From assembly GCA_964422025.1 (NCBI GenBank), contig CAYQYZ010000002.1, positions 67,765-131,764 of the forward strand: a DNA stretch of 64,000 bases. The letters run 5' to 3'. Both the position numbers and the translations under genes were made by a program. This DNA comes from an uncultured Gammaproteobacteria bacterium (GTDB lineage Bacteria > Patescibacteriota > Microgenomatia > UBA1406 > HO2-37-13b). The notes beneath the pieces were generated by a model. That model did not search any database and had not been told where the DNA came from. It was given only the letters and a program-made list of their open reading frames with translations. Positions 2 to 54,224 of this stretch are shown in pieces; positions within the stretch are counted from its first letter, which is position 1, and every line of letters starts with the position of its first letter.

Positions 2-280
2 TACGGAAAACATGTAGGGCTTGCCGATAGCGTATACGTTCCCCCATCGCCTACCCCGACCGTAACTCTCACTCCCACACCAACAGTGGCCTTGGGAATT
101 CCCGCACAAGTTTTGAGGGAAATTAAGGATAAAAATTGTAAAACGGTATATAAATTAGCCTCCCCAGAATCTAAGTTGCGCGTGCGCCAATCGAGCGTGC
201 TGATTACGTGTACGGAGCCAACTGCAGTTCCGTCGAAAGCAATTAGTCCTACCGGCGATTCTTCGCTCCGCTCAGAATGA
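2..280 (+). CDS. 3' fragment of a CDS entering from upstream of the window (Pro/Thr linker, small Cys-containing tail)
   Basis: Frame 2 is open from base 2 to TGA 278-280 (..YVPPSPTPTVTLTPTPT..). The last codons (GDSSLRSE*) and the stop lie inside repeat copy 257-281. Confidence 0.35.
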   Translation, partial: YGKHVGLADSVYVPPSPTPTVTLTPTPTVALGIPAQVLREIKDKNCKTVYKLASPESKLRVRQSSVLITCTEPTAVPSKAISPTGDSSLRSE

Positions 281-281
281 C
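257..281 (+). repeat. Family B palindromic repeat (GATTCTTCGCTCCGCTCAGAATGAC)
   Basis: Identical 25-mer recurs at 36636-36660. Related copies at 7672-7697, 8622-8654 and 49671-49696. Confidence 0.85.
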
Positions 282-305: not shown

Positions 306-1400
306 ATGACTACCGACGAACGCGCAAAGCTCCTAAACGAGGTTGGGCAAGAAATTGTAACTTCCGATGAACTCCGCGACTTTTTAGCTTCAAATGACTC
401 ATATGTTTGCTACGACGGCTTTGAACCTTCCGGGCAAATGCATATTGCCGCCGGAATTCTGCGAGTAATTAATGTAAACAAAGCAATCGCCACGGGTGCT
501 CATTTCAAAATGTTGGTTGCCGACTGGCATGCGTATTTAAACAACAAAATGGATGGCGATTTGGAGAAAATTCAAACGGTCGGTCGTTATTTCATCGAAG
601 TGTGGAAAGCTGCAGGAATGGACATGAATCACGTAGAATTTTTATGGGCAAGCGAAACAGTTAAAGATCCTGCGTATTGGGAATTGGTCATGAAAATTGC
701 AAAAACAAATTCAATTAAGCGCTTCGCTCATTCTGCAGAAATTATTGGCCGAGCAGAATCTGACAGCCTCACCTTAGCGCAACTTATGTACGTTGCCATG
801 CAAGCGGCCGATGTCTTCTACTTAAAGGCTAAAGTTACCCAATTAGGCATGGATCAACGCAAAGTAAACATGCTAGCACGCGAAATTGCTAACCAGTTAG
901 GATTTGATAAACCAATTGTAGTAAGTCACCACATGTTATTGGGCTTACAGCACAAACCCGCAGGAGCAGATGACGATGTAGTCGCCCGTACTATAGAGCT
1001 AAAAATGTCAAAATCCAATCCCGATTCGGCTATTTTTATGACTGATACGGCCGAAGAGATTTCTCGAAAAATTGCAAAAGCATATTGTCCGGAAGGGGTG
1101 ACTGAGGAAAATCCAATTCTAGAATATTGTAGATATATTATTTTTGAATCACTTGATAAATTGGGATTGGGCGAAATTACGATCGAGCGTCCAGAAAAAT
1201 TTGGCGGAACCGTCTCCTTCGCCTCTTATGAAGCTCTGGAGAATGCGTTTGTGAGTAAGGAAATTCACCCTATGGACTTAAAAAACACCGTCGCCACACT
1301 CCTTGACCAACTACTGCAGCCAGTCCGTAAACATTTTGAAGAAAATGAAGAAGCAAAAACACTATTGAAACAAGTGAAGTCATTTCAAGTAACACGATAA
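306..1400 (+). CDS. tyrS: Tyrosyl-tRNA synthetase, archaeal/eukaryal type
   Basis: 364 aa. YDGFEPSGQMHIA (HIGH-region equivalent), KMSKSNP (KMSKS), RPEKFGG and HPMDLKN blocks are colinear with archaeal TyrRS as I recall it. Confidence 0.9.
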   Translation: MTTDERAKLLNEVGQEIVTSDELRDFLASNDSYVCYDGFEPSGQMHIAAGILRVINVNKAIATGAHFKMLVADWHAYLNNKMDGDLEKIQTVGRYFIEVWKAAGMDMNHVEFLWASETVKDPAYWELVMKIAKTNSIKRFAHSAEIIGRAESDSLTLAQLMYVAMQAADVFYLKAKVTQLGMDQRKVNMLAREIANQLGFDKPIVVSHHMLLGLQHKPAGADDDVVARTIELKMSKSNPDSAIFMTDTAEEISRKIAKAYCPEGVTEENPILEYCRYIIFESLDKLGLGEITIERPEKFGGTVSFASYEALENAFVSKEIHPMDLKNTVATLLDQLLQPVRKHFEENEEAKTLLKQVKSFQVTR

Positions 1401-2559: not shown

Positions 2560-3435
2560 ATGAAACTCGCATATTTTGGAACACCGCAATTTTCAGCCGA
2601 TTTTTTGGGGAAAATTTTAACTGATCCCGATTTACGCTCTATTGAAGTTGTTTTGGTGGTTACGCAACCCGACAAGCCCGTTGGAAGAAAGCAGATTATA
2701 ACCCCAAGCCCAGTAAAAGTGCTGGCTCAAAGCCATGATTTGCAAGTAATTACCGCACTCCCCGACCCTGATTCAGAGCATTATAGAGCTCTAGCTAACG
2801 CTGATGTGGCGCTCGTGTATGCCTACGGTCGCATAATTCCCGCAAACATTTTAGCCTTACCACAACTCGGTTTTTGGAACATTCATCCTTCCCTACTTCC
2901 AAAATATCGCGGTGCCTCGCCTACTGCGTATCCGCTTTTGAATGGAGACACAACTACCGGGGTAACGCTCATGCAAATGGATGAGAAAATGGATCACGGA
3001 GCAATTATTGCGCAGGAAAAATATGAGATTGGTGTCCATGAGAAACGGCCCGATTTGGAAAGGGAACTGACAAAGATGGGGTTTGAAATGTTTAAGCATG
3101 TCATTCTGACCCAGAGCGAAGCGGCGGGGAAGAATCTCGGTGTGCCGCCAGTGCAACAAGATCATTCTCAAGCCACATTCACCAAACTACTTAAAAAAGA
3201 TGATGGATTTGTAGAACTTGATGATGTCCGAAGTGCGCTCCAAGAGAACGGTTCAACCGTATATAACAAGTTCCGAGCATTCTTCCCATGGCCTGGAATC
3301 TGGACAAAAGTAGGCGATAAACGTATGAAAATCACCGATTGCACTCTACAGGAGAGTAAGCTGGTTATTAATAAAGTGCAGTTTGAAGGAAAGACTGAAA
3401 CAAATTTTAATACACAAATGATTTTGTCATCCTGA
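2560..3435 (+). CDS. fmt: Methionyl-tRNA formyltransferase
   Basis: 291 aa. FGTPQFS, VVTQPDKPVGRK and NIHPSLLPKYRGASP motifs. Contains an in-frame repeat insertion (HVILTQSEAAGKNLG), and its stop codon lies in repeat 3426-3450. Confidence 0.9.
   Translation: MKLAYFGTPQFSADFLGKILTDPDLRSIEVVLVVTQPDKPVGRKQIITPSPVKVLAQSHDLQVITALPDPDSEHYRALANADVALVYAYGRIIPANILALPQLGFWNIHPSLLPKYRGASPTAYPLLNGDTTTGVTLMQMDEKMDHGAIIAQEKYEIGVHEKRPDLERELTKMGFEMFKHVILTQSEAAGKNLGVPPVQQDHSQATFTKLLKKDDGFVELDDVRSALQENGSTVYNKFRAFFPWPGIWTKVGDKRMKITDCTLQESKLVINKVQFEGKTETNFNTQMILSS
3100..3136 (-). repeat. Family B repeat, reverse orientation, in frame inside fmt
   Basis: gtcattctgacccagagcgaagcggcggggaagaatc. Compare gtcattctgagccgaaggcgaagaatc at 12028-12054. 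Confidence 0.75.
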
Positions 3436-3450
3436 ACTTGTTTCAGGATC
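3426..3450 (-). repeat. Family A repeat (reverse) covering the fmt stop codon
   Basis: gtcatcctgaacttgtttcaggatc is the reverse complement of the GATCCTGAAACAAGTTCAGGATGAC family. The fmt TGA is inside it. Confidence 0.85.
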
Positions 3451-3452
3451 TA

Positions 3453-3458
3453 TATAAT
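3453..3458 (+). promoter_or_regulatory. -10 box TATAAT, 6 nt before the GT2 ATG at 3465
   Basis: tatataat aaacat ATG read directly. Confidence 0.4.
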
Positions 3459-3464
3459 AAACAT

Positions 3465-4325
3465 ATGAAACTCTCCGTAGCCCTTGCGATTTTTAATGAA
3501 GAAAGTACCATTGCCCGCTGTATTGAATCGGTTTACGATATTGCTGATGAAATTGTTGTGGTAGACGGCGGATCGACCGACGAGACACTCTCTATCCTTA
3601 AAAAACTCGATGAGGGATCCCGAACCAAGTCCGGGATGACAAAAATAAAGGTTTTCCACGAAGAAAATCCTCCAATGTTTCACATTAACAAGCAAAAGGC
3701 ACTTGAAAAATGTACCGGTGATTGGATTTTACAGCTTGATGCAGATGAAGTGGTGTCGGGAGAGTTGGGTAAGGAAATCCTGAAACAAGTTCAGGATGAC
3801 AGCGCAACTCAGGATGACGCCTCTGTAAATCCGCACGATACCCATGTCATCTCGAACGAAATGAGAGATCTCAGTCCTGTCGCATATTGGATTCCCCGCC
3901 TGAATTACTTCCTTGGCAAACCACTACGAAAAGGGGGACAGTACCCAGACCCAACAATTCGTTTGTATAAAAATGGCGTCGCACATTTTGCATGCAAAAC
4001 GGTTCATGAACAAGTAACGGTAAATGGGGAAGTGGGTTGGCTTAAAAATGACCTTTTACATTATCCATACCCTACATTTACCGCATACGTAGAAAAATGG
4101 GTTCGCTATGCCCGACTAGAAGCTGAAAAAAACTTTAAAAAAGGTATGCGTCCAAGCGTGCAAAATGCCGTGAAATATGGCATTTTTATGCCTAAAATGT
4201 GGTTTTTCAAAACGTATTTTCGTCATCGTGGGTATGCCGATGGCTTTCCCGGATTCGTATTTTCCCTCTTTTCAAGCTTGCGCTACCTGGTTGAATACAT
4301 ATTCCTCTATGAAAAAAGTCGATAA
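3465..4325 (+). CDS. Glycosyltransferase family 2
   Basis: LSVALAIFNEE, VVVDGGSTDET and LQLDADE (DxD) motifs. Start moved to ATG 3465 because 3438-3464 is repeat and promoter sequence. Carries three in-frame repeat-derived segments. Confidence 0.8.
   Translation: MKLSVALAIFNEESTIARCIESVYDIADEIVVVDGGSTDETLSILKKLDEGSRTKSGMTKIKVFHEENPPMFHINKQKALEKCTGDWILQLDADEVVSGELGKEILKQVQDDSATQDDASVNPHDTHVISNEMRDLSPVAYWIPRLNYFLGKPLRKGGQYPDPTIRLYKNGVAHFACKTVHEQVTVNGEVGWLKNDLLHYPYPTFTAYVEKWVRYARLEAEKNFKKGMRPSVQNAVKYGIFMPKMWFFKTYFRHRGYADGFPGFVFSLFSSLRYLVEYIFLYEKSR
3616..3640 (+). repeat. Family A variant repeat, in frame in GT2 (GSRTKSGMT)
   Basis: gatcccgaaccaagtccgggatgac. Compare gatcccgaaacaagttcgggatgac at 7928-7952. 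Confidence 0.75.
3777..3800 (+). repeat. Family A repeat, in frame in GT2 (ILKQVQDD)
   Basis: atcctgaaacaagttcaggatgac, followed by a partial copy ctcaggatgac at 3808-3818. Confidence 0.85.
3846..3870 (-). repeat. Palindromic repeat variant, in frame in GT2 (VISNEMRDL)
   Basis: gtcatctcgaacgaaatgagagatc has the same GTCAT..GATC frame and hairpin arms (tctcgaacgaaatgaga). Confidence 0.6.
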
Positions 4326-5268
4326 AATAGGTGTGTATCGAGGGGCAGGGCGTTACTACAAAGCCCTAAATTCCGCTGGAGTTTCATACGAACAGCTCCC
4401 GTTGTGGCAACCCTTCACCCTCCCTTCCGCAAAACCAGTTGGCAGGGGAGTCATTGCGATTTTTGACGTAATCCCCCTGAAATTTGCAAACCACTTCCCT
4501 ATCGGAATTAAAGGAAAAATTAAGTTGTTTAAAAACAAGTTGGCGCTGAAAAAATTTATTACAATTCTAACGATTTCGCAGGTTGCCAAAAAAGACATTC
4601 AAAATTACCTTAAAATTCCCGCAGACTGCATTCATGTTGCCTACCCACCCGTCGATCCGGTCTTTCTTAAGGCTCCAAATAGGAAAAGTGAAGTCTCATC
4701 TGTCATCCCGAACTTGTTTCGGGATCCCAAACGCAATATTCCCTACTGTATTTACGTCGGCGACGTAAATTGGAACAAAAACTTGCCTACTTTAGCCCGT
4801 GCTATTAAGCTATCTGGCATTTCATGTGTGTTTGTTGGAAAGGCATTTTCAACCCCTCCCCTGCCTCATAAATGGCATAGGGGATACCAAGAATTCTATG
4901 AACTGGCAAAAGACGACCCAAAATTTATTTTCCCGGGGTATGTTTCCGATGAAGAACTCATTACGCTCTATAAAAATGCCGTATGTAACGTACTCGTTTC
5001 TCACGACGAAGGGTTTGGATATTCATATGCCGAGGCAGCAGCGTTAAGAGTGCCTAGTGTTCTCTCCGACACGCCTATTTTCCATGAAACCGCCGGCCGC
5101 ACTGCCCTATTCGCTTCCCCAACCGACCCTCAGGACATTGCGGATAAAATCACAACTCTCCTTAAAGATACAGAGAAACGAAACGAACTCGGTGCATCTG
5201 CTCAAAAACGAGCGTTAGAATTATTCGATCCAAAAGATTTCACGAACGCGGTGTCAAAGCTCGTCTAA
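4309..5268 (+). CDS. Glycosyltransferase family 1 (GT4-like)
   Basis: C-terminal EGFGYSYAEAAALRVPSV (E-x7-E) motif. Start set at ATG 4309 (MKKVDKIG), which overlaps the GT2 end by 17 nt. The longer track ORF from 4177 overlaps GT2. Confidence 0.75.
   Translation: MKKVDKIGVYRGAGRYYKALNSAGVSYEQLPLWQPFTLPSAKPVGRGVIAIFDVIPLKFANHFPIGIKGKIKLFKNKLALKKFITILTISQVAKKDIQNYLKIPADCIHVAYPPVDPVFLKAPNRKSEVSSVIPNLFRDPKRNIPYCIYVGDVNWNKNLPTLARAIKLSGISCVFVGKAFSTPPLPHKWHRGYQEFYELAKDDPKFIFPGYVSDEELITLYKNAVCNVLVSHDEGFGYSYAEAAALRVPSVLSDTPIFHETAGRTALFASPTDPQDIADKITTLLKDTEKRNELGASAQKRALELFDPKDFTNAVSKLV
4702..4728 (-). repeat. Family A repeat (reverse), in frame in the GT4 gene (VIPNLFRDP)
   Basis: gtcatcccgaacttgtttcgggatccc is the reverse complement of 7926-7952. 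Confidence 0.85.
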
Positions 5269-5716: not shown

Positions 5717-6550
5717 ATGATTGATACACATGCACATTTGAATTTCAAAGCATTTGCAAAAAATCTCGATACAACGCTTGACGAAGTGTACGCAGCCGGA
5801 ATTCATATAGCCGTTATTCCCGGAACCGACAATAAATCATCTGTTCGAGCTGTTGAAATTGCCCAAAAATATGCAGGCATGTATGCTGCAGTGGGAATTC
5901 ACCCACACCACGTGTTCGAAGAGGTTGGAAAGGCAAATGGGAAAGCAATCGATTATGAGCATCGTCTATCTGTAATTAAGGCACTCCTTAAAAAAGCCCG
6001 GGTTGTCGCAGTGGGCGAAATTGGGCTCGACAGACATTTGTACAAAGATACCAAATATACCCAGTATCAGATTGATGAAGAATTCATGACCGTCCAAAAA
6101 GAATTTTTTACCCGCCAGTTACAATTCGCTATTCAATTTGGAAAGTCAGTAATTATTCACAATCGAGAAACCGCCGATGAAATGCTGGAAATTCTGACCC
6201 AAAAATGGGATAAACGATTAGAAGGAAAAGTAGTAGTTCATTGCTGCGAACCCAATCGCAAGATTCTGCAATTTGCAATTAAACATCGCGTGTACATTGG
6301 GGTTGATGGAGATATTACGTATTATCCGGCCAAACAAAAATTTGTACAATATATTCCTCCTGAATTGCTAGTACTTGAAACAGACTCCCCTTTCTTGTTG
6401 CCCGAACCGTTAAAAAGTCAAAAAGCGTTTCCTAATACACCCAAAAATTTACCGGGAATTGCGAAATTTATTGCGAATTTACGAGGAGAAAATGAAGAGG
6501 ATTTTGTAAAACAGGTTGATGAAAATGCTTCGAAGTTATTCGGGATTTAA
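5717..6550 (+). CDS. tatD: TatD-family metal-dependent hydrolase/DNase
   Basis: 277 aa. IDTHAHLN, GEIGLD, HNRE and ETDSPFL motifs. Confidence 0.85.
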   Translation: MIDTHAHLNFKAFAKNLDTTLDEVYAAGIHIAVIPGTDNKSSVRAVEIAQKYAGMYAAVGIHPHHVFEEVGKANGKAIDYEHRLSVIKALLKKARVVAVGEIGLDRHLYKDTKYTQYQIDEEFMTVQKEFFTRQLQFAIQFGKSVIIHNRETADEMLEILTQKWDKRLEGKVVVHCCEPNRKILQFAIKHRVYIGVDGDITYYPAKQKFVQYIPPELLVLETDSPFLLPEPLKSQKAFPNTPKNLPGIAKFIANLRGENEEDFVKQVDENASKLFGI

Positions 6551-6564
6551 TACGAAAATATGAA

Positions 6565-6637
6565 GGCACTTCCCTGGGGGTAGAAACATTTTTAACGTGA
6601 TCGCTCACGATAAATTCTACCCCACAGGGAGAAGTGC
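6565..6637. terminator. Long imperfect hairpin between tatD and the GC-rich island (possible bidirectional terminator)
   Basis: ggcacttccctgggggtagaa pairs with ttctaccccacagggagaagtgc. The loop holds an inner palindrome, cgtgatcgctcacg. Confidence 0.4.
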
Positions 6638-6705
6638 ACCTCAGCTCAAGCCGAGAAATATTCTTTTGTTAAGGTTGAGACCTTGTCCTAGGTGGTTCCA
6701 CCTCC

Positions 6706-6825
6706 TCAGAGCGACTTGAAGACGCACGAGAGTAGCGCAAGCGCCAATACGCTCATGATGAGGCCGGCTCCCGACATGATCGGGGCTGATAATGTTGCAG
6801 TGTTTGCGACCTGTGCTAGGATCAT
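6706..6825 (-). CDS. Putative 39-aa hydrophobic peptide (MILAQVANTATLSAPIMSGAGLIMSVLALALLSCVFKSL)
   Basis: ATG is preceded by GGAGG plus 5 nt. One predicted TM segment. A GGTGGAACCACC hairpin follows. Too short for the ORF track; my own translation. Confidence 0.3.
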   Translation of the reverse strand: MILAQVANTATLSAPIMSGAGLIMSVLALALLSCVFKSL

Positions 6826-6915
6826 GCTCTCCTCCGAGAATTTTTGTATCACGAAACCGAAGCTTCGCAAAAGGGGTTTCACCAAGCAAGTGCCGGGTGA
6901 TTCGCGGATCGGTCT

Positions 6916-7023
6916 TTACCGTCGTCCTGCCCATACTACAAGGAATGCGAGGGTAATGCCGATCAAGAACGCAACGACTTGTAGGAACGGGTCTGCTTGT
7001 TCAGAGCCTGGAACAAATTCCAT
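6916..7023 (-). CDS. Putative 35-aa membrane peptide (MEFVPGSEQADPFLQVVAFLIGITLAFLVVWAGRR)
   Basis: ATG is preceded by AGGGAG plus 5 nt. Single TM segment with an RR tail. My own translation. Confidence 0.3.
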   Translation of the reverse strand: MEFVPGSEQADPFLQVVAFLIGITLAFLVVWAGRR

Positions 7024-7178
7024 GGTGGCTCCCTTTGGAGTTGAGGGGTTTCACTAGACAACGTCTAGCGATATGACAGAATGTCCATAGGCTCTCCTAT
7101 AACAGGTGTTCTGGTTTCGCTGGGCGGGGTGCCTAGCGATTACTTAGTTGTCTTCCTCCTTTCTGGAGGTTGACAGAT

Positions 7179-7385
7179 CTAATTCCAGCGGTTTCGGATC
7201 CGAGCAATCAAACCAGATGATCCGGGAACCCCGGCAAGGCCATTCAAGAGCGCAATCTTGTTCCTGCAATACGCGGAATTGGCAAGATGACGATCTAAAC
7301 ACGACTTGCAGAGAAAAGGTGCGCTATCATCGCAACCTTGACATCGTTCTACACCGGGTTGTTCTTTGCACCATTCGCACAACAT
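7179..7385 (-). CDS. Putative 68-aa Cys-rich zinc-finger protein (CxxC-x9-CxxC-x7-CxxC-x3-H-x7-C)
   Basis: MLCEWCKEQPGVERCQGCDDSAPFLCKSCLDRHLANSAYC.. The internal ATG 7385 has CGGAG plus 6 nt upstream. The track's longer start (7541) runs into degenerate repeat sequence. Confidence 0.35.
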   Translation of the reverse strand: MLCEWCKEQPGVERCQGCDDSAPFLCKSCLDRHLANSAYCRNKIALLNGLAGVPGSSGLIARIRNRWN

Positions 7386-7599
7386 ATCAGACTCCGTTCC
7401 GTTAGTAGTTTCCTTTCGGTTACTACGGTCAATGTCAAAAACGTGGGAACGCTTTCGACGAGAGATTTGTGCAGGATTGCGCACGTCAAAAACGGGGCAT
7501 CCCAAAAATGGGCAACTGTAACACTGTCTTGTCATCCTCAAAATACGAGCATCCTAATCGGTCATTGTTCTAAACAAAAAATGGAAAATCTCAAATCGA

Positions 7600-7730
7600 G
7601 ATTCTTCACTTTGTTCAGATTGACTGATAGGGATTCTTCATCGCGAATTGCGAATCGGAATGACAGGTGGAGATCCTTCGCTTGCGCTCAGGATGACAGA
7701 ATAGAGATTCTGAAACAAGTTCAGAATGAC
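7600..7730 (+). repeat. Head-to-tail array of four repeat units (families B, B, B, A)
   Basis: Units at 7600-7624 (gattcttcactttgttcagattgac), 7632-7664, 7672-7697 (gatccttcgcttgcgctcaggatgac) and 7704-7730 (gagattctgaaacaagttcagaatgac). Confidence 0.85.
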
Positions 7731-7927
7731 GAATATATAATATTTCGGCCGGGCTATTTGTAAACTACTTTACAAATATATTGTAAGGTGCACAATTGTT
7801 CAAAAAAATGAGCTTTAGACGATATATGCGATTATTTATGTCAAGACTCAATAATTGTCCAATATGCCTATGAGTATAGCATAAAATGAGGGAAAAATCA
7901 ATGCTATAGGATCATCAGGGTGACGGG

Positions 7928-7952
7928 GATCCCGAAACAAGTTCGGGATGAC
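7928..7952 (+). repeat. Family A repeat (GATCCCGAAACAAGTTCGGGATGAC)
   Basis: Identical 25-mer at 47935-47959. The arms atcccgaa and ttcgggat form a hairpin. Confidence 0.9.
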
Positions 7953-7976
7953 AGGCCAATATAGTACAATAGTCAC

Positions 7977-8615
7977 ATGAACATATATCCTTCAATTCTT
8001 GAGCATGCTTTGGAAGATTTTGTGGCACAAATTGAAAACGTAGCTCCACATTTTTCTCATTTCCAGCTCGACATCGCCGATGGCTTATTTGTGCCGAGTA
8101 AAACGGTACAACCACATGATCTTGAGAGTGTAGATTTCAGTAATTTACAAGGTAAAACTGTCGAATTTCACTTAATGGTGCGCGATTATGCCTCGTACAT
8201 AGAGCAAATTGAAAGGCTCGACTCCAAACTAGCCATAAATCGCGTATTTATTCCCGTAAGTGAAAGCGGGAAAAACATTGTTTCGCATCCTAAATATGAG
8301 ATTGGACTTGTGTTGAATCCGGAAGATTCAATTGCAGAGTATCTCGATCTTATCATGCAGTATAAAAGTGTTCAACTTATGACTATCACTCCCGGCGCAC
8401 AGGGAAATCCATTCAAGCCTGAGGTGCTTAATAAGATTGATGAGCTGCGTGTGGGAGGATATACTGGGGAAATCGTGCTTGATGGTGGGATAAACGATGT
8501 AACGTTAAAAGAGGTTGTTTCTCGAAAATATGCGCCTACGGGTGTGTGTCCGGGGAGCTATTTTAAGGAGAATGTAGAAGAACATCTCGCGACGCTCCAA
8601 TCAATCGCTGCATAA
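7977..8615 (+). CDS. rpe: Ribulose-phosphate 3-epimerase (divergent)
   Basis: 212 aa. PSIL.., QLDIADGLFVP, HLMV, MTITPGAQG and LDGGIN blocks follow the Rpe TIM-barrel pattern. Confidence 0.75.
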   Translation: MNIYPSILEHALEDFVAQIENVAPHFSHFQLDIADGLFVPSKTVQPHDLESVDFSNLQGKTVEFHLMVRDYASYIEQIERLDSKLAINRVFIPVSESGKNIVSHPKYEIGLVLNPEDSIAEYLDLIMQYKSVQLMTITPGAQGNPFKPEVLNKIDELRVGGYTGEIVLDGGINDVTLKEVVSRKYAPTGVCPGSYFKENVEEHLATLQSIAA

Positions 8616-8621
8616 CACCGA

Positions 8622-8654
8622 GATCCTTCGGTCGCTTCGCTCTCTCAGGATGAC
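8622..8654 (+). repeat. Family B repeat
   Basis: gatccttcggtcgcttcgctctctcaggatgac. Confidence 0.8.
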
Positions 8655-12007: not shown

Positions 12008-12010
12008 CCA

Positions 12011-12054
12011 TCATCCTGAGCCGATTTGTCATTCTGAGCCGAAGGCGAAGAATC
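12011..12054 (-). repeat. Family B repeat (reverse), 1.5 copies
   Basis: tcatcctgagccga plus gtcattctgagccgaaggcgaagaatc. Confidence 0.8.
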
Positions 12055-12074
12055 TCCGCATACTCCGCTCGATA

Positions 12075-23922: not shown

Positions 23923-26154
23923 ATGAAAAAGATAATACTTGGCGGTGCATTATTACTATTTTTATTACCATTAGTATCTCCAGCCCAGGCTCTTTTTATT
24001 TGCGATGATCCTGCACATGTCCCGCCCAATAGATGTAATAATCCAATTTCAAATGTGAGCTGTGACAATCCAAGAAATTTTACAGGTTCATGTATCGGAA
24101 CAACAGGACAATACAATTCAGTCGCAAGTTGCGATGCTTTTGATCATGCAGACGTTGGATTCTACTACTTTAAACGGTATTATTACAGAATCAAGAAGGC
24201 AACTGACGGAACGTGTGGCTCTCCCAGTTGGGCATATTCACACACTTGGTCACAAACAACAAGTACAGACACATCAGTAAATCCACCTAATTGTCGATTG
24301 TATGCTACCAATGTTCCTGCCGGATGTGATGATGGGATCCAACCAAATGCACCAACAAATTTCCCACCTAGCCCTCCAGGCTCTTGTCCCAATCCATACA
24401 ATATTCCACCTATCCAATGTAACAACATTCCTTGTGCCTACAAAAATGCCTGCGGCTGTTCATGCACCTTCCCTCCCTGTGGTCCTGGGCAATGTTCCGG
24501 GGGGCCGCCGCCAACAGCAACGCCAAGCCCAACTCCCACTCCATTCTGCCAAGTATTTTGCCCCGGACAGAGCGGACTTGAAGGAGCAATGAACAACCAA
24601 GGTGGAGGAGGAGGAGTTTCAAATATAAATTTCCAACCAACGCCCATCCTACCAACCCAAGCAATAGGGTTTTTGAATTATTACGGATTTAATGGGTTTG
24701 CTTGTGGAACATTTGATGATGCAAAAACATATCCCAAAGCATGTCCAGCCGGAGGAAGTGGTCTGGGTAATACGACTGAATATTGGACATATCCTACCCC
24801 CACAACAAGCCCTTTGCGATACAACATGCTTTGTGGAAATCAGACACACATATATACGGCCATTGTTAATGCAGGAGCACGTACCGGTGCCTATGGGGTG
24901 GGTCAACTAGGAGGCCCCACGCCAACTACTGCTCCAACACCAACGATGGGGATATATCCAATTGGGTGTTTTATGGGAACTCCAACTCCAACTCCTGAGG
25001 GCGGAATTCAAACCGTTGCCGACCAAGATGCGGGATTCTTAAAGGAACAAGGAGGCGTAATTGGATCTGATGCAAATTCCTGCTCATGTTCAGTAGCCGT
25101 AGGGTGCCAAACAAGCTTGCAATCGCTTCCAAGTGCAACCGGCGTATCATGTGACGCTAATTGCGACTTTACCGTTTCCCCAGAAACTCCCGAATTTAAT
25201 GATGCGGTAACCTATACAGCAACCGGCGCGGGTGTCGATGGAAGTTCAACATTTAGTTTTGACGATAATACTACCCCGGTTGCTGCAAATGCCGGACCAG
25301 TTACTCGAACATTTGCAAACTCTGGCGTATATCGAGTTGCGCTTACCTGTAATAGTGGTGCCCAAACCTGTACTCGAACGGTAAATAATTACTGCGGACC
25401 ACTTTCATGGTACAAAATCAAAAACGCATCCTTCCATAAAAATAATTCGGTTAATAACTCAATTCCTGCCAGTATTACCGCGTTTGACGGCGACGACACC
25501 ACCCAAGCACTTACGAGTATTGGAAGTGCGGGACTTGTTACAACCACCGGATCAATTACCACCGGTGCCGGGAATCTTTCTACACCAAACTGGAGAAGCA
25601 CACTGTACACTCCAAATACAACATACACTCCAACGGCGTATGCTGATTATGTAGTAGCCCGAAAGACATATAGTACGATCAGTGACGCGAACAGCAACGG
25701 CGTAATAGACTCCGGAGAACTCACTGCAAACACCACAAATTACATCGTTGGAGATTACACAATCGATAGCAATAGCGTACAAAGCAAGGCTCCAGTAGTA
25801 ATAGTCGTTCGGGGCAATCTGACAATCAATTCTAGCAGTAATGAATTCAACCCGCCCGATAAAGCAATGGTATTTATTGTAACGGGAACATTAAAAATTC
25901 ACTCGCATCATGATCAATTAAATGGAATTTTCATAGCAACCGGGGTTGATTTGGCATACGATGTTTCAAGCACCACGACTCCTCTTAAAATTGTTGGAAA
26001 CTTAATTTCGCATAATACAATTAATTTAATGAAGCGCGTGCGAACAAATGGCGCACAACCATCGTTGTTTGTTGTGCAAGAATACAAACATTATTTGAAT
26101 ACAATTAATATGATGGGAATTAGTAAATATACACAGACCGAATTGAGGCCGTAG
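23923..26154 (+). CDS. Secreted Cys-rich giant protein with a PKD-like domain and a beta-helix-like C-terminal region (candidate pilus-associated adhesin)
   Basis: Signal peptide MKKIILGGALLLFLLPLVSPAQA. The segment VSCDANCDFTVSPE..VTYTATG..GVYRVALTC is PKD-like. Lies directly upstream of the PilX-like gene. Confidence 0.7.
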   Translation: MKKIILGGALLLFLLPLVSPAQALFICDDPAHVPPNRCNNPISNVSCDNPRNFTGSCIGTTGQYNSVASCDAFDHADVGFYYFKRYYYRIKKATDGTCGSPSWAYSHTWSQTTSTDTSVNPPNCRLYATNVPAGCDDGIQPNAPTNFPPSPPGSCPNPYNIPPIQCNNIPCAYKNACGCSCTFPPCGPGQCSGGPPPTATPSPTPTPFCQVFCPGQSGLEGAMNNQGGGGGVSNINFQPTPILPTQAIGFLNYYGFNGFACGTFDDAKTYPKACPAGGSGLGNTTEYWTYPTPTTSPLRYNMLCGNQTHIYTAIVNAGARTGAYGVGQLGGPTPTTAPTPTMGIYPIGCFMGTPTPTPEGGIQTVADQDAGFLKEQGGVIGSDANSCSCSVAVGCQTSLQSLPSATGVSCDANCDFTVSPETPEFNDAVTYTATGAGVDGSSTFSFDDNTTPVAANAGPVTRTFANSGVYRVALTCNSGAQTCTRTVNNYCGPLSWYKIKNASFHKNNSVNNSIPASITAFDGDDTTQALTSIGSAGLVTTTGSITTGAGNLSTPNWRSTLYTPNTTYTPTAYADYVVARKTYSTISDANSNGVIDSGELTANTTNYIVGDYTIDSNSVQSKAPVVIVVRGNLTINSSSNEFNPPDKAMVFIVTGTLKIHSHHDQLNGIFIATGVDLAYDVSSTTTPLKIVGNLISHNTINLMKRVRTNGAQPSLFVVQEYKHYLNTINMMGISKYTQTELRP

Positions 26155-26191
26155 ATCCTGATCCGCCGGCTGGCGGAAAGTTCAGGATGAC
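26154..26191 (+). repeat. Composite repeat: family A arms with a nested TCCGCCGGCTGGCGGA hairpin
   Basis: gatcctga-tccgccggctggcgga-aagttcaggatgac. The inner module also occurs in family D copies (13651-13733, 59467-59522). Confidence 0.75.
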
Positions 26192-28737: not shown

Positions 28738-30393
28738 ATGCTAAAAAAGAGCCTTCTTAATGCGATAAAAGACACATTCCCCAAAAAGGACATTTTCTTG
28801 CTTGCCCCAAAAAATCCTGATCACGGCGATTATGCCATACATAAAAGTTCTGTCCCCGATCACAAACTCCTTACTGCTGGTTTTGAGCATGAACTCGTGG
28901 GTTCCGTTGAACAAATCGGTGACTTCATAAATTTTTCTCTGAGCAAGCCCGCGTTGTGGGATGAAATTAAGAGAATTGTAAAAGAAAAAGACAAATATGG
29001 AAATTCTGTGCAAGACGGAACGGTAAAGATTAATTTAGAATTTGGGGATCCAAACACCCATAAACTTCCTCATATTGGCCACTTATTTTCATACATTATT
29101 GGGCATTCATGGTCACGTATTTTGGAAGCAACCGGACACCGAGTATTCCGCTCGATCTACCAAGGAGATGTCGGACTGCATGTCGCAAAATGCTTATATG
29201 TCGCTTCCCAAGACCCCCTGAAAATCGGTGAACTAAAAACGCTTGATGAAAAAGTGCAATTCTTGCAAGAATGTTATCAGAAAGGATCTCAATTATATGA
29301 AGACGACGCAGATGTAAAAAAAGCGATTGATGACTTAAATAAAAAGATTTATGAACACGATGGTGAAGTAGAAGAATTGTGGAAACAAACACGACAGTGG
29401 AGTGTAGATTATTACGAAAAATTTGAAGAGCAATTGGGAATTGAATACAACAAACATTACTTTGAAAGTATGACCGCAGATGAAGGAAAAAAAATAGTTT
29501 TAGAAAATGTTGGAAAAGTTTTTGAAGAAAGTGAAGGCGCAATTATTTTCCCCGGAGAAAAAATTGGATTGCATAATCGTGTATTTATAAATCGATTTGG
29601 CAATCCAACATATGAAGCAAAAGACATGGCCCTTGCTGCATTGAAATATAAAGATTGGAAATTTGATACATCCATTATTACAACGGCGTCTGAGCAAAAC
29701 GAGTACTTTAAAGTAATTTTTGCCGCACTTGAAAAAGTTAATCCGGAATTAAAAGGAAAGCTACAACATATCGGATTTGGAATGGTTGACTTAAAAAGTG
29801 GAAAGATGTCTTCACGTAGTGGTAATATTGTTTCCGCAATTGATTTAGTCGATGAAGTTCAGAAAAAAGCCGCCCTGATTTCACCTGAAAACCCCCTACA
29901 CATTGCGCTCGCTGCAATTAAATATTCATTTCTAAAAAGCGAAGCACGTAAAAATATTTCATTTGATATTGACGAATCAATTTCATTACAAGGAAATTCA
30001 GGGCCATATTTGCTATACATGTATGCGCGGGCAAAAAGTATTCTTACAAAAGCCGGCGGGCCGGGAATCCTGACTCAAGCTCAAGATGACAAACGCGCTC
30101 GAGAGGATAAAACATCTCTTGCTGAGGCTAGTAAAGAAGAATTAACCGTTGTACGAACACTTGTTAAATTCCCGGAAGTCGTTGAAGCTGCGAGTGAAAA
30201 AATGGCGCCTCATTTAATAGCCACCTATCTCTTTGACCTAGCGCAGAAATTTAATAAATTATATGAAACCACTCCAATTCTGAAAGCCCCCGATGCAGAC
30301 AAAATCAGACTATTAACACTCATTGAAGCAACTGCCCACGTTATTCAAAATGGCCTGTTTTTGTTAGGAATTGACACGCTTGAGACAATTTAA
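28738..30393 (+). CDS. argS: Arginyl-tRNA synthetase
   Basis: 551 aa. PHIGHL (HIGH), KMSSRSGN, and a C-terminal DALR-type anticodon-binding region. Carries an in-frame repeat-like insert (GILTQAQDD). Confidence 0.9.
   Translation: MLKKSLLNAIKDTFPKKDIFLLAPKNPDHGDYAIHKSSVPDHKLLTAGFEHELVGSVEQIGDFINFSLSKPALWDEIKRIVKEKDKYGNSVQDGTVKINLEFGDPNTHKLPHIGHLFSYIIGHSWSRILEATGHRVFRSIYQGDVGLHVAKCLYVASQDPLKIGELKTLDEKVQFLQECYQKGSQLYEDDADVKKAIDDLNKKIYEHDGEVEELWKQTRQWSVDYYEKFEEQLGIEYNKHYFESMTADEGKKIVLENVGKVFEESEGAIIFPGEKIGLHNRVFINRFGNPTYEAKDMALAALKYKDWKFDTSIITTASEQNEYFKVIFAALEKVNPELKGKLQHIGFGMVDLKSGKMSSRSGNIVSAIDLVDEVQKKAALISPENPLHIALAAIKYSFLKSEARKNISFDIDESISLQGNSGPYLLYMYARAKSILTKAGGPGILTQAQDDKRAREDKTSLAEASKEELTVVRTLVKFPEVVEAASEKMAPHLIATYLFDLAQKFNKLYETTPILKAPDADKIRLLTLIEATAHVIQNGLFLLGIDTLETI
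30065..30090 (+). repeat. Family B-like repeat variant, in frame inside argS
   Basis: gaatcctgactcaagctcaagatgac. Compare gatccttcgctctcgctcaggatgac at 49671-49696. Confidence 0.55.
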
Positions 30394-34929: not shown

Positions 34930-36678
34930 TCATATTTTTTTGAATATCGTTACTTTCGGATGATCATACACCGTAAACGCTTCTTCACTCCATTGATCGG
35001 GAATTTCAAAACCCACGCTCCCCACACTAATACCCGGATATGAAGTGAATTCCTTTATTTTTTTAAACTCTAGTTTCCCGGCAAATAGGTCATTATAAAA
35101 TTGAGCCATTCTGGGAAATCGTTGGGGGGCAGTTGTCATACTGCCATACCCGCGATTGCTCGAAAAAACGATGTAATCGGCTTTTTGAAGGGCATCGGTA
35201 ATCTCGTTCCACTTACCTGCGTCATCAGGTGCAAAAACAGGCATTTGAATGGTCGTAAATGAATTTATATTCTCGGGAAACCCAAGTGGAAGCGAGTCGT
35301 CCCAATGTTCCTGAGCAAGAACCGCTGTGGGAGGTAAATTTTCATACATCCATTTGGAAGCGGTCACTCTGGAGTGAGGTCGGGAGTAGATAGAAAGAAA
35401 CGCGAGAGGCCAGATGAGTATGAGAATTGCATAGATGATAAAAATAGGGCTCCTTGACTTGATCCACGCTCTATGAGAGTTGTCACCAAGAGATTCAACA
35501 ATATTAAAAGAAAACAAATTGATTACAAAATACCCAGCAGTAATTGCCAAAAGCGAATACAAAATAGAAAAGTATCGCATCGTCATGCCAAACTGCATTC
35601 CTTGGTATATAAAAAATGCAAGGACCCACAGGTAAAGCAGATACAACTCTAAACGAGGATTATTTTTCAGTAGCATAATTACTCCAAGGATGGCCGAGAT
35701 AAAAAGCACCGGCCCCATACCAAAGAAAAAAATATTTTGCAGTGGAAACAGAATCTTTGTTTTTGAAATCCACTGAACTCCTGGCGGGTACCAGGCCTCG
35801 GGAGTATTAAGCACTTGTAGTTCCAAAATATTCTTTATAAAAATTTTGCTGATTTGTGGATCAAAAAAATTTCCGTTTGCAAACAAATAGGGGTCAGCTA
35901 GACGAAGAAATATGTATGCTGTAGCAGTAAAAAAAAGACCCGTAATAAGAATCGATGGAATTTCACGAAAATTAAACCTCTTAATGTTCTTCAGGAATAA
36001 CACCGCACCGAGTAAGGGAGCAATGTAAATGGCGTTTATTTTACTTGCGAGTGCGAGTCCAAAAAATGCAGCAGAAAGAATGATATTCAACTCTCTCTTA
36101 GAGAGCAAAAAACGCGCTCGATACGCAAAGTAGAGCGCGCCGAGCATAAAGAATGTTACAAAATTGTCTACGGTAAAAAAATGAGACACTTGAATCGGGA
36201 AGACCATGATCGAATATAAAAACGCGCTAACGTATTTTATTCTCCGATCCCATTTGTACTGTCTCTGGAAGAGCGATGTCAGTAAGTACACAAAGAGTAC
36301 AATTCCCACATCCAAAATAGCACTGACCACCCTCCCTACTTGCGTAAGTTGAAAATAATCTCCCCGTTCAAAAGTTGTCGCTACATATTTAACAAACGTT
36401 ATTGGAAATGTTCCATATACATAAAATGGAAACCCAATATTAGCCGGGTTTAATTTTGAAGAAATTGGATCTAAATACTGTTTAAAAGATGAAGGAAATT
36501 CCTGAGCAACTGCGACCATCGTTAAAAACCGCTCGTCTGGGTGTAAGTGCTGTCCTTGGTCCCAGTTAAGTCCATAGAGGCGTATGCAAAGGGCAAAAGT
36601 GAGAATTAAGAGTATTGGTAATTTAGTGGTGAGGAGATTCTTCGCTCCGCTCAGAATGACAAGTGGTATTCGAATCAT
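34930..36678 (-). CDS. GT39/ArnT-like (GT-C) membrane glycosyltransferase
   Basis: 582 aa, many TM segments, HPDERF in the first loop (DE motif). ATGA coupling to the upstream gene fixes the start, so the family B repeat is translated as VILSGAKNLL. Confidence 0.7.
   Translation of the reverse strand: MIRIPLVILSGAKNLLTTKLPILLILTFALCIRLYGLNWDQGQHLHPDERFLTMVAVAQEFPSSFKQYLDPISSKLNPANIGFPFYVYGTFPITFVKYVATTFERGDYFQLTQVGRVVSAILDVGIVLFVYLLTSLFQRQYKWDRRIKYVSAFLYSIMVFPIQVSHFFTVDNFVTFFMLGALYFAYRARFLLSKRELNIILSAAFFGLALASKINAIYIAPLLGAVLFLKNIKRFNFREIPSILITGLFFTATAYIFLRLADPYLFANGNFFDPQISKIFIKNILELQVLNTPEAWYPPGVQWISKTKILFPLQNIFFFGMGPVLFISAILGVIMLLKNNPRLELYLLYLWVLAFFIYQGMQFGMTMRYFSILYSLLAITAGYFVINLFSFNIVESLGDNSHRAWIKSRSPIFIIYAILILIWPLAFLSIYSRPHSRVTASKWMYENLPPTAVLAQEHWDDSLPLGFPENINSFTTIQMPVFAPDDAGKWNEITDALQKADYIVFSSNRGYGSMTTAPQRFPRMAQFYNDLFAGKLEFKKIKEFTSYPGISVGSVGFEIPDQWSEEAFTVYDHPKVTIFKKI
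36636..36660 (+). repeat. Family B repeat inside the 5' coding end of the GT39-like gene
   Basis: gattcttcgctccgctcagaatgac, identical to 257-281. Confidence 0.85.
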
Positions 36679-37394
36679 ACGAATTTTTCAAAATGAATAT
36701 TGGCTTTTTCAATTCCATTTTCCGCAACAAAAGTTTTTAATGATTCCACTACGGGTTGGGCACCACAAATATAAAATGTTGCGCTATTTTTTATTTCTGC
36801 ATCTTTTGTAATATGTCCATGCACGTACATATTTATTCTCCCTTTTCGAAAAAGCGAATCAGCAAAAACATTTTCATCAGTTTCTTGCGACAAGCAAATC
36901 ATTGCACGTAAATTCGGATACGCCAAGCATAGATCCTTAATTTCTTGTACAAGATATAAATCTTTTTTTGCTCGCAGTCCCCAGTATAAATACACATCTT
37001 CTTTCCAACCGGTCTGCAAGAGAGTTTTGATCATGCTCAAAATCGGCGCAATTCCAGTTCCGGTTGCCATGAAAATTTTTTGAGGGCGTTCATCTTTTAT
37101 TGAAAAAATCCCCGCAGGTCCTTGAAAAAAAGCAGACTCCCCAATCTTCAAATCTGACAAATGCGATGATCCGATTCCATTGGGAACCATTTCTACAAGC
37201 AACTCAAACGTTCCCTTCTCCGCCGGACTGGAAAGAACTGAATACAATCGACGAACTTCTCCAACTCGTAAAATCATGTATTGCCCTGCGGCAAACTCCA
37301 GCTGTTCCTGCGGTTGTAATGTAAATACTAATCTCCATACATCATGGGACAATTGTATTTTTTCAGTTAGGGTTGGATGAAAATCGGCGATCAT
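36675..37394 (-). CDS. Ferredoxin-NADP reductase-family oxidoreductase (FAD/NAD(P)-binding)
   Basis: 239 aa. RLYSV (RxYS), GTGIAP and FYICG motifs. 4-nt overlaps with both neighbouring genes. Confidence 0.8.
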   Translation of the reverse strand: MIADFHPTLTEKIQLSHDVWRLVFTLQPQEQLEFAAGQYMILRVGEVRRLYSVLSSPAEKGTFELLVEMVPNGIGSSHLSDLKIGESAFFQGPAGIFSIKDERPQKIFMATGTGIAPILSMIKTLLQTGWKEDVYLYWGLRAKKDLYLVQEIKDLCLAYPNLRAMICLSQETDENVFADSLFRKGRINMYVHGHITKDAEIKNSATFYICGAQPVVESLKTFVAENGIEKANIHFEKFV

Positions 37395-45321: not shown

Positions 45322-45576
45322 TTGCGGAGCCGGGAATCGGACCCGGTCTAGGAGATTATGCACTTATTCTTCAATTACTTGAAGGGTTGGACTATGTCTT
45401 CATCCCGACGTATCGGGAGCCGGCGTGTAGTCTCTACGGGGTCATTCCGACGCGTGTCGGAAGACTTCCCACGGCATTGCCCCATAAGGGTTTCACCGTT
45501 ATAGCCAGTTATCTAGGTAAATTACTCTACCAAGAGCCCATTTTGAGCCTCCTGTGCGGCCTTACACTACCCCGCT
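45322..45576 (-). tRNA. tRNA with anticodon CAU (Met or Ile2) interrupted by a group I intron
   Basis: 5' exon 45576-45546: AGCGGGG UA GUGU AAGGCC GCAC A GGAGG CU. 3' exon 45360-45322: CAUAA UCUCC UAGA CCGGG UCCGAUU CCCGG CUCCGCA A. The joined exons give a cloverleaf with loop CUCAUAA. No CCA is encoded. Confidence 0.7.
45361..45545 (-). ncRNA. Group I intron (~185 nt, no ORF) in the tRNA anticodon loop after U33
   Basis: The 5' exon ends in U and the intron ends in G. GUAGAGACUACACG and GAAGACAUAGUCC match the conserved P7/P3 core (R and S) elements of tRNA group I introns. Compare the Azoarcus GUAGAGACUAGACGG. Confidence 0.65.
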
Positions 45577-45585
45577 ATAAATATA

Positions 45586-45613
45586 AGTATAGCACAAAAG
45601 ACGCGTGTGTCAA
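45586..45613 (-). promoter_or_regulatory. Promoter for the tRNA: TTGACA-16-TGcTATACT
   Basis: The minus strand reads TTGACAcacgcgtcttttgtgcTATACT, 9 nt before tRNA position 1. Confidence 0.5.
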
Positions 45614-47934: not shown

Positions 47935-47959
47935 GATCCCGAAACAAGTTCGGGATGAC
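47935..47959 (+). repeat. Family A repeat
   Basis: gatcccgaaacaagttcgggatgac, identical to 7928-7952. Confidence 0.9.
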
Positions 47960-47970
47960 ATGGGTGGTTT

Positions 47971-49670: not shown

Positions 49671-49696
49671 GATCCTTCGCTCTCGCTCAGGATGAC
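49671..49696 (+). repeat. Family B repeat
   Basis: gatccttcgctctcgctcaggatgac. Confidence 0.85.
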
Positions 49697-49716
49697 AACT
49701 GCTATAATGAATCTAT

Positions 49717-51460: not shown

Positions 51461-51504
51461 GATCCTGAAACAAGTTCAGGATGACAAGATAAATTCGGGA
51501 TGAC
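51461..51504 (+). repeat. Family A repeat plus a partial second copy
   Basis: gatcctgaaacaagttcaggatgac, then attcgggatgac. Confidence 0.85.
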
Positions 51505-51514
51505 ATAAAATAAT

Positions 51515-53594: not shown

Positions 53595-53619
53595 ATAATT
53601 TCCCTGCTCGGGGTGTGAT

Positions 53620-53707
53620 CGAAGGTTGGTATTCGGACTTGTTCCTGTGGAAGGAACTTACCGTTGCGGCACAGCTTAGGATTTTCACCTAATTCCCACA
53701 ACCTTCG
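53620..53707 (-). promoter_or_regulatory. Cobalamin riboswitch aptamer (compact, class II / variant-like)
   Basis: The minus strand reads CGAAGGUUG-UGGGAAUUAGGUGAAAAUCCUAAGCUGUGCCGCAACGGUAAG..CACAGGAACAAGUCCGAAUACCAACCUUCG. It has a 9-bp P1, the GGUGAAAAUCC and CCGCAACGGUAAG core, and a B12-box-like AAGUCCGAAUACC. Confidence 0.75.
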
Positions 53708-53716
53708 TTTTAGTAA

Positions 53717-54223: not shown

Positions 54224-54224
54224 A

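Follow-up and report, generated by a model that had tools for sequence, protein, structure and literature searches.

Repeat copies and their host genes

The window analyzed here is a stretch of 64 kb with 41% GC from one metagenome-assembled genome (MAG) of Candidatus Roizmanbacteria (Candidate Phyla Radiation (CPR)/Patescibacteria), and it harbors a family of short hairpin repeats of the repetitive extragenic palindrome (REP) kind, of which seven full copies lie in frame within intact genes (fmt, GT4, argS, GT39/PMT_2 and, three times, GT2). The calls of these five genes were all borne out by Pfam (Table 1). The top protein matches are from Microgenomates and Roizmanbacteria, and the fmt product of the window is 88%, 81% and 61% identical to those of three MAG contigs, two of them labeled Candidatus Roizmanbacteria and one, mislabeled, Gammaproteobacteria. 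Genes were aligned at the protein and codon levels across syntenic loci of six relatives (L002, L003, L004, L007, L008/L009 and L010).

The family was delineated by reading the sequence and by searching for GTCATYY, and comprises 19 full copies, degenerate ones counted, together with two or three left-half copies. All belong to one hairpin family in which (T/C)GTC is followed by AT-Y-C-Y-G-A, an inner part, R-G-R-AT, and C with two pyrimidine-rich bases. The strict pattern GTCATYCYGA-N(3-28)-RGRATC was matched 15 times as compared with 0.00 expected from 100 shuffles, and TGTCATYCYGA 14 times as compared with 0.12; the observation is thus confirmed as real and far beyond chance. All copies listed in an initial annotation of this DNA were recovered within 1-3 nt, with the translations as given there. 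No Rfam family fits the repeats; the above-threshold Rfam matches of the window are confined to a group I intron and a cobalamin riboswitch.

The tag is TGTC before 14 copies and CGTC, AGTC or GGTC before the remainder, and in every predicted fold it is unpaired, with the stem starting at AT. In the A-type (24 nt from GTC to AT, GTCATCCTGAACTTGTTTCAGGAT) a perfect 8-bp stem (ATCCTGAA/TTCAGGAT) encloses the 5-nt loop CTTGT. The B-type (GTCATTCTGAGCGGAGCGAAGAAT), also 24 nt from GTC to AT, has an outer stem of 5 bp (AT plus 3 bp), and its inner part consists of a tandem G·A and then a GC-GGA-GC mini-hairpin with an inner stem of 2-3 bp. Variants with longer inner hairpins measure 32-37 nt, the long-loop copies being located at 3100, 8622 and 26154. 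The 3' tail is C-led, 3 nt long and mostly CTC, CCC or CTA, not CCA. The copies at 3846 and 30066 fold no better than shuffled sequence and are read as decayed. Most copies are single, with one same-orientation array of three and one head-to-head pair inside GT2, and left-half copies adjoin full copies at 3801-3818, 12009-12026 and 51486-51504.

In addition to the seven in-frame copies, three provide or abut stop codons (257, 3425, 26154). The proposal of the initial annotation that repeats supply the stops of fmt and of the open reading frame (ORF) ending at 280 was correct, as both TGAs lie inside copies: that of fmt (3433-3435) sits in the stem of the copy at 3425..3452, and the copy at 257..281 contributes, with its GAATGAC end, that of the 117-aa ORF (278-280). 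Intergenic copies are located 0-20 nt past stop codons at 281, 3426, 8622, 12028, 26154, 47935 and 49671. At 7950-7976 of the window, AAAGGTATAGTACAAT, about 8 nt and an ATG come in succession after a reverse REP end (..GAATGAC), and this arrangement recurs before different genes, namely upstream of GT2 and rpe in L002, L003 and L008; a composite module of a repeat plus a -10-like box is possible.

Table 1. Host genes and repeat copies in the 64-kb window
Feature	Position	Strand	Location, encoded segment or remark
fmt	2560-3435		Formyl_trans_N and Formyl_trans_C (Pfam)
GT2	3465-4325		Pfam
GT4	4309-5268		Pfam
argS	28738-30393		tRNA-synt_1d and DALR_1 (Pfam)
PMT_2/GT39-like gene	34930-36678	-	Pfam
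FAD/NAD oxidoreductase	36675-37394	-	Stop overlaps GT39 start (ATGA)
REP B-type (GTCATTCTGAGCGGAGCGAAGAATC)	257..281	-	Last 7 residues DSSLRSE and TGA stop of 117-aa ORF ending at 280
REP, expanded inner hairpin	3099..3138	+	fmt N/C domain linker, VILTQSEAAGKNL, aa 181-193; peptide spanning the repeat junction ...FKHVILTQSEAAGK
REP A-type, 8-bp stem, 5-nt loop	3425..3452	+	Last codons (ILSS) and TGA stop of fmt
REP in GT2	3616..3641	-	GSRTKSGMT
REP A-type in GT2	3776..3801	-	ILKQVQDD; head-to-head pair with 3845..3872 copy
Left-half copy (GTCATCCTGAG...)	3802..3819	-	Adjoins full copy 3776..3801; encodes SATQDD
Degenerate REP in GT2	3845..3872	+	VISNEMRDL
REP A-type in GT4 interdomain linker	4701..4728	+	VIPNLFRDP
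Three REP copies, one orientation	7632..7730	-	Non-coding
Intergenic REP upstream of rpe	7928..7953	-	Copy number differs among relatives
Intergenic REP between convergent genes	8622..8654	-	24-nt variant with compensatory stem changes at same site in relatives
Half copy and full REP	12009..12056	+	Between convergent penicillin-binding protein (PBP) and methionyl-tRNA synthetase (MetRS) genes
REP, long inner hairpin	26154..26191	-	Abuts stop codon of 743-aa ORF
Degenerate REP in argS	30066..30091	-	GILTQAQDD, aa 443-451, then half-copy-like stretch RAREDK; peptide spanning the repeat junction ...GGPGILTQAQDDK
REP B-type in GT39/PMT_2	36636..36661	-	VILSGAKNL, codons 7-15
Intergenic REP A-type	47935..47960	-	Between two type IV secretion system (T4SS)-pilin-like genes
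Intergenic REP B-type, 25 nt	49671..49697	-	
Intergenic REP A-type and adjacent left-half copy	51461..51505	-	

Copies within coding sequence

Even though ORFs occupy about 90% of the window, only seven of the 19 full copies are intragenic, corresponding to about 0.12 copies per kb of coding and about 1.9 per kb of non-coding DNA, a density roughly 15-fold lower in the former. From GTC to AT, the length is 24 or 36 nt in each of the seven intragenic copies, and intergenic copies are found additionally at 25, 26, 32 and 37 nt. A frame that gives TCC-TGA or GGA-TGA in the repeat is either avoided or put to use as a stop codon, and the frame of the 3616 copy is open only through a CCCGA/CCGGG stem in place of CCTGA.

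The exact A-type 24-mer was identified in an exact-match scan of contigs on at least 120 metagenome stretches with at least 143 copies. Among the matches listed, 15 of the 143 copies lie in long ORFs and about 11 in credible genes, which include class I and class II aminoacyl-tRNA synthetases, the SecA C-terminus, MiaB/RimO-like, TatD and RfbB proteins, and others. The same 24-mer was also present on 36 IMG/VR viral stretches (L131-L166), and the repeats may be carried or spread by phages or by the flanks of prophages. On two metagenome stretches it occurs at regular spacing, every 91 nt in L027:2713-3009 (four copies) and approximately every 364 nt in L030:816-1567 (three copies), in what look like larger REP-containing units arrayed in tandem.

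With respect to codon phase, six of the seven intragenic copies in the window are read as GTC|ATC. A universal phase preference was considered and rejected, as the metagenome copies, among the matches listed, are read as xHPELVSGS (8-9 copies) or I[LP]KQV[QR]DD (3-6 copies) and none as VILNLFQD. Since the preference is not general, frame use looks like a simple filter for stop-free frames and for lengths that are a multiple of three.

For the location of the copies in proteins, AlphaFold2 (AF2) models were available for fmt (mean predicted local distance difference test score, pLDDT, 88) and ArgS (mean pLDDT 90). The loop placement suggested in the initial annotation holds for the ArgS segment, residues 443-451 of which fall in a stretch of pLDDT 47-57 between helices 422-438 and 466-475, and for residues 189-195 of fmt, a linker with pLDDT below 50, but not for fmt residues 181-188, which end the last helix of the N-domain (163-188). 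The argS copy had been assigned to the linker before the anticodon-binding domain; the copy is present, but by Pfam and AF2 it lies inside the DALR domain (from residue 425), in its first inter-helix loop. In GT4, the site is located ahead of the conserved sequence with which the C-terminal Rossmann domain begins (YCIYVGDVNWNKN).

It is extremely improbable that the intragenic copies are an artefact of pseudogenes, miscalled ORFs or assembly errors. The sequence is MAG-derived and the N-terminal copy in GT39 hinges on the choice of start codon, but every host ORF is of full length, the Pfam domains are complete, the AF2 models are of high confidence, and the same copies recur in independent assemblies (Logan, ENA, NCBI). 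For GT39, the initial annotation held the start to be fixed by the ATGA overlap, and this agrees with the overlapping oxidoreductase stop and with the lack of any canonical start codon from the repeat to the first transmembrane helix.

Filled, empty and rewritten sites among relatives

The three GT2 sites differ in their distribution among relatives. The 3616 copy occurs in the window and L010 only, being missing from L002, L003, L008 and L004, and accounts for a net gain of 21 nt. The 3776 copy with its half copy, again a net gain of 21 nt, is found in the window, L008 and L002 (in the latter two with a B-type inner part) and not in L010 or L003. The 3846 copy has diverged orthologous forms in the window, L008, L002 and L003 but not in L010, its 27-nt insert lying directly 3' of a TCTGTC that already exists in the empty site. 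For argS, LTQAQD is missing from a relative of 91% identity (P0122), so that the window has six additional residues; relatives of about 52% identity are approximately 17-20 residues shorter at the repeat loop, and other lineages carry different repeat dimers in the same loop (VILTKVGIQ...ESGMT in P0125, VMPNSFRHL...LKQVQDD in P0147). The window protein is also about 13 aa longer there than PDB 6ao8, and the loop is of variable length among solved ArgRS structures. In GT39, the repeat-derived N-terminal extension is shared by all relatives of at least 75% identity and by none at 58% or below. The ...GDSSLRSE* end of the 117-aa ORF is confined to the window, the L007 and L008 proteins ending otherwise and without a repeat, and the C-terminal site of fmt is empty in L007. 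For ArgS, GT39 and fmt, the more distant orthologs are repeat-free.

These alignments show lineage-specific extra residues at the repeat sites in GT2 and argS, at the N-terminus of GT39 and at the C-terminal end of the 117-aa ORF. The initial annotation had expected lineage-specific insertions, and this expectation is upheld for these genes, including all three GT2 copies, but not for the linkers of fmt and GT4, where no length was gained. In the rpe ortholog of L003 (L003:15264-16010), a 36-residue in-frame insert consists of one REP and four half copies (EILRFAQDDKESAQDDKGSARDDKGSAQEN) and reads AQDDK repeated four times; neither the window nor L008 or L010 has it. Insertion 3' of GTC of a mobile core with a fixed length of 21 nt, which would keep the frame by itself, was considered in view of the two GT2 sites with +21 nt and the insert directly 3' of TCTGTC; it finds no support as a general rule, as other pairs differ by 27 and about 30 nt and, at 3777, pre-existing bases form the tail end.

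The best explanation, and one that we hold to be highly probable, is that the repeats are CGTC/TGTC-tagged REPs in Candidatus Roizmanbacteria, without a transposase, and that the intragenic survivors are selected passengers in permissive segments. It builds on the observed family and its excess over chance, the intact genes, the presence/absence patterns, the placement in low-confidence loops and linkers, and the mosaic recombination described below. Copies would arise and turn over at many sites, and would pass between related lineages via homologous recombination of flanking genes. Purifying selection would purge nearly all copies from coding DNA, sparing those with a stop-free frame, a length change that is a multiple of three and a sequence-tolerant segment as the site, such as the interdomain linkers of fmt and GT4, a surface loop (ArgS, GT2), the pre-transmembrane N-terminal tail of GT39, or C-terminal ends. 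The surviving copies would then be translated as passenger peptides of 7-13 residues and decay slowly. No Y1/REP-associated tyrosine transposase (RAYT), DDE or other transposase family was detected in the approximately 58 ORFs of the 64-kb window, the only recombinase being of XerC/D type.

The exchange of copies between lineages is reflected in sliding identity profiles. For the greater part of the region, identity between the window and L010 is 95-100%. It is only 33-75% at 3101-3200 and approximately 3800-4400, where the window instead matches L002 and L008 at 95-100%. These stretches are exactly where the repeat contents of the window and L010 differ, and the boundaries of the recombination tracts lie at or near repeat copies. 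The mosaic identity tracts thus indicate that repeat-bearing alleles move between lineages by homologous recombination, and much of the difference between the window and L010 stems from such tracts. The change from A-type to B-type at GT2 3777 was rejected as proof of gene conversion, being confounded by the breakpoint between L010-like and L008-like sequence that falls at that repeat.

Several points weigh against the passenger explanation. The inserts of filled/empty pairs measure 21, 21, 27 and about 30 nt, and no target-site duplication was found at the pairs compared; given the varying sizes and the missing duplication, a fixed-size cut-and-paste or copy-and-paste unit is not supported. 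Repeat-free Roizmanbacteria and solved Fmt structures, 3r8x among them, have an fmt linker as long as that of the window. The length of the GT4 linker is likewise unchanged across an A-type copy (window and L010), a decayed A-type (L003), a reverse copy (L008) and a second palindrome (L002), and tyrS of L004 contains a perfect A-type copy (L004:9717-9740, GTCATCCTGAACTCGTTTCAGGATC) with no indel relative to six relatives. Furthermore, a few sites host differing hairpin types and orientations across lineages; a permissive-site filter can explain this repeated use, but targeting or hairpin selection could do so as well. The evidence base comprises one 64-kb window and about 100 kb of relatives. 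The translation of the copies, the neutrality of their peptides and the way in which copies are generated are inferred.

At the fmt linker, each close relative has a hairpin of some kind: L002 and L008 share the long variant of the window, L010 has a B-type and L003 a long variant, both of these in reverse, and L004 carries a forward VIPAKAGI-like variant. The linker of L007 (P0007) was ruled out as an empty site, as it carries an unrelated 25-nt palindrome (TTTACAAGCCCCCGGAGCTTGTAAA). This second palindrome (TTTACRAGCCCCCGGRGCTYGTAAA) is in frame in the L007 fmt linker (L007:10545-10569, FYKPPELVK) and likewise in frame in the GT4 linker of L002 (L002:12147-12171, GLRAPGARK), both of which are TGTC-REP sites in the window. 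For the fmt and GT4 linkers, replacement or turnover is a better description than insertion. In tyrS, L010 has just the left 12 nt (GTCATCCTGAAC) at the codons of the L004 copy, which suggests that the latter originated in place or by overwriting. Turnover, conversion or in-place origin fits these three sites better than insertion does.

Such sites bring in a second explanation, which we regard as possible but distinctly the less probable one, namely that hairpins are for the most part not transposed but created or overwritten where they stand, through template switching at quasi-palindromes or short-patch gene conversion with other copies as donors, a half-site such as that of L010 tyrS being perfected, or one hairpin type swapped for another, often without change in length. 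It would account for the tyrS pair, for the constant length of the fmt and GT4 linkers with A-type, B-type, reverse or family-2 hairpins across lineages, and for the left-half copies beside full ones in the window and in L003 rpe; same-site copies that differ by compensatory stem changes and loop expansion, and the lack of target-site duplications in the pairs compared and of a transposase in the window, also speak for it. However, clean net insertions of 21-30 nt exist too, much of the apparent replacement is accounted for by recombination tracts importing the allele of a neighbor, and the occurrence of an identical 24-mer in diverse metagenomes and viral contigs favors copying or transfer over independent origin. 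Template switching or conversion is plausible as a contributor to the generation of copies. A more far-reaching version is unlikely, in which a particular set of protein linkers and termini are hairpin cassettes, repeatedly rewritten at constant length by template switching, gene conversion or recombination seeded by tag and stem, possibly with perfection of half-sites as in L004 tyrS, instead of passive transposed junk. If it were true, a transposase-free mechanism would be continually writing new segments of 7-13 residues into essential proteins.

The positions of the sites at domain boundaries, in the linkers between the N and C domains of fmt and between the N- and C-terminal Rossmann domains of GT4 and at the start of the anticodon-binding domain of ArgS, could also mean that hairpins are retained for nucleic-acid structure, for instance as a site of ribosome or RNA polymerase pausing that aids co-translational folding, an RNase processing or stability site, or, at the level of DNA, a gyrase or nucleoid-protein site. 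Compensatory stem changes and the hairpin in the fmt linker of every close relative, including the unrelated palindrome of L007, would be in keeping with such a role. Nevertheless, we find it quite unlikely: L010 has no hairpin at the second GT2 site, distant ArgS, GT39 and fmt orthologs are without repeats, two intragenic copies have decayed to non-significant folds, and the use of both orientations means that no single RNA is conserved. Moreover, non-coding DNA has about 15 times the density of such units, and linkers simply tolerate insertions.

Known repeat systems, neighboring features and significance

The CGTC/TGTC-tagged REP superfamily was defined by Di Nocera, De Gregorio and Rocco in 2013 (BMC Genomics 14:522; PMC3733652). 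Its units have an unpaired CGTC (or TGTC/CCTC) tag, an 8-9-bp stem opening with A-T and T-A, a 4-5-nt loop, longer in some CGTC families, and a 3' tail with the consensus CCA; they form mostly head-to-head dimers, are located downstream of convergent or co-directional ORFs, include intragenic units and are associated with no transposase (PMC3733652). In-frame intragenic copies, also in tRNA synthetase genes, and copies supplying stop codons have already been described, and the intragenic peptides listed in Additional file 3 include VIPAKAGI, SFPRKRES, DSRFRGND and CHSRESGNP (PMC3733652). The window repeats agree in the unpaired tag, the A-type 8-bp stem and 5-nt loop, which is the geometry of CGTC-2, the location just downstream of ORFs, the stop-supplying copies, the in-frame copies, one of them in a tRNA synthetase gene, and the absence of a transposase, here among the approximately 58 ORFs of the window. 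The relative L004 carries GTCATTCCCGCGAAGGCGGGAATC with a 4-nt GAAG loop, both in head-to-head dimers (e.g. 441-464(-) with 471-493(+)) and inside its GT2 gene, and the encoded VIPAKAGI is the peptide listed for R. conorii CGTC-1 (PMC3733652). By contrast, the host belongs to CPR/Patescibacteria, outside the five phyla reported (PMC3733652), the tails are mostly CTC or CCC instead of CCA, and many copies (B-type and long) have a G·A-flanked inner mini-hairpin of 9-21 nt in place of a simple loop. The intragenic share is high (7 of 19), and variants alternate at the same sites in close relatives.

The comparison with in-frame Rickettsia palindromic elements (RPEs) made in the initial annotation is well taken in that the repeats have the architecture of the superfamily to which RPE-4 and RPE-6 belong, R. 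conorii RPE-6 being CGTC-1 and RPE-4 being CGTC-4 (PMC3733652). As described there with reference to Ogata et al. 2002, RPE-4 and RPE-6 are short palindromes that lie in frame in genes of a reduced genome and encode segments of 8-10 residues. The window repeats are likewise short in-frame palindromes in a reduced genome, the link being made through the listed peptides and the statement in PMC3733652; the host is another one and the A- and B-type stem and loop sequences differ. The Neisseria dRS3 repeats, equated with CGTC-1 (PMC3733652), share the superfamily architecture and the clustering of copies; they belong to another host, and in-frame coding insertions are not reported for them. Resemblance to a further Rickettsia element, RPE-1, is functional and not one of family. 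RPE-1 is reportedly a selfish palindrome of roughly 100-150 bp that is inserted in frame in essential genes, encodes 30-50 residues, and is translated and tolerated on protein surfaces. The window units, also in frame in essential genes, have 24-40 bp and encode 7-13 residues, and differ from it in size.

GTAG REPs and bacterial interspersed mosaic elements (BIMEs) of E. coli and Pseudomonas have a GTAG tag and are linked to a RAYT Y1 transposase that is flanked by REPs. The window repeats are similar in size, in the hairpin, in their position at gene 3' ends, in the dimers and clusters and in the occasional intragenic copies, and classical GTAG-type REPs, or MITEs (miniature inverted-repeat transposable elements), might be mobilized by a RAYT (IS200/IS605-like Y1) or another transposase encoded elsewhere in the genome, of which the window covers only 64 kb. 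The insert directly 3' of TCTGTC resembles the tetranucleotide-directed insertion of IS200/IS605. We consider this explanation very unlikely, as the tag is (T/C)GTC and not GTAG, no Y1_Tnp or other transposase match was obtained among the ORFs of the window, and no terminal inverted repeats other than the hairpin are present. In addition, a MITE would not be expected to lack both a target-site duplication and a fixed insert length, the inserts here varying from 21 to 30 nt, and no transposase has been tied to CGTC REPs in the literature (PMC3733652).

Several other features of the window were noted. An NAD-dependent epimerase/dehydratase gene (1455-2540) is located between tyrS and fmt in this genome only; the two genes are directly adjacent in L007 and L010 and separated by short repeat-bearing intergenic DNA in L002, L003, L004, L008 and L009. 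The tatD-rpe gap (about 1 kb, 6550-7600) is GC-richer and without credible ORFs, and a gap of similar size is found in all relatives. A conserved large non-coding RNA in the 1.4-kb region 6550-7977 was considered and rejected, as no Rfam match was obtained down to E=1 and 6600-7400 is poorly conserved among relatives. The group I intron (45368-45555) splits the anticodon loop of a tRNA-Met(CAT) gene (45330-45600, minus strand), which was seen by ARAGORN only once the intron had been removed in silico. The cobalamin riboswitch (53607-53721, minus strand) lies upstream of a 426-aa ORF without a Pfam match, and a cobalamin adenosyltransferase gene and an nrd gene are found nearby (52314-56663). 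The nrd gene encodes the large subunit, 812 aa long and with barrel and TSCPD domains, of a ribonucleotide reductase, which we take to be of the B12-dependent class II type. A 94-nt tRNA-Phe was called by ARAGORN at 23188-23281 inside a 914-aa ORF (21117-23861) with no Pfam match; either the tRNA call is spurious or no true ORF exists here.

The phenomenon itself is already known; new are the host phylum and the comparative detail, with the turnover of hairpins at the same sites as the most interesting part. No paper linking REPs with Patescibacteria was found in the literature searched. CGTC/TGTC REPs, and their in-frame colonization of essential genes, now reach the CPR, which provides a second reduced genome, after Rickettsia, that appears to tolerate translated palindromes. 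Recurring peptides in CPR and metagenome proteins such as VILSGAKNL, ILKQVQDD, CHPELVSGS, DSSLRSE* and VIPAKAGI are repeat-derived and not conserved motifs, and for annotation it matters that such peptides can displace predicted starts and stops. The filled and empty sites, the same-site turnover and the mosaics can be used to trace how a transposase-less class of REPs spreads.

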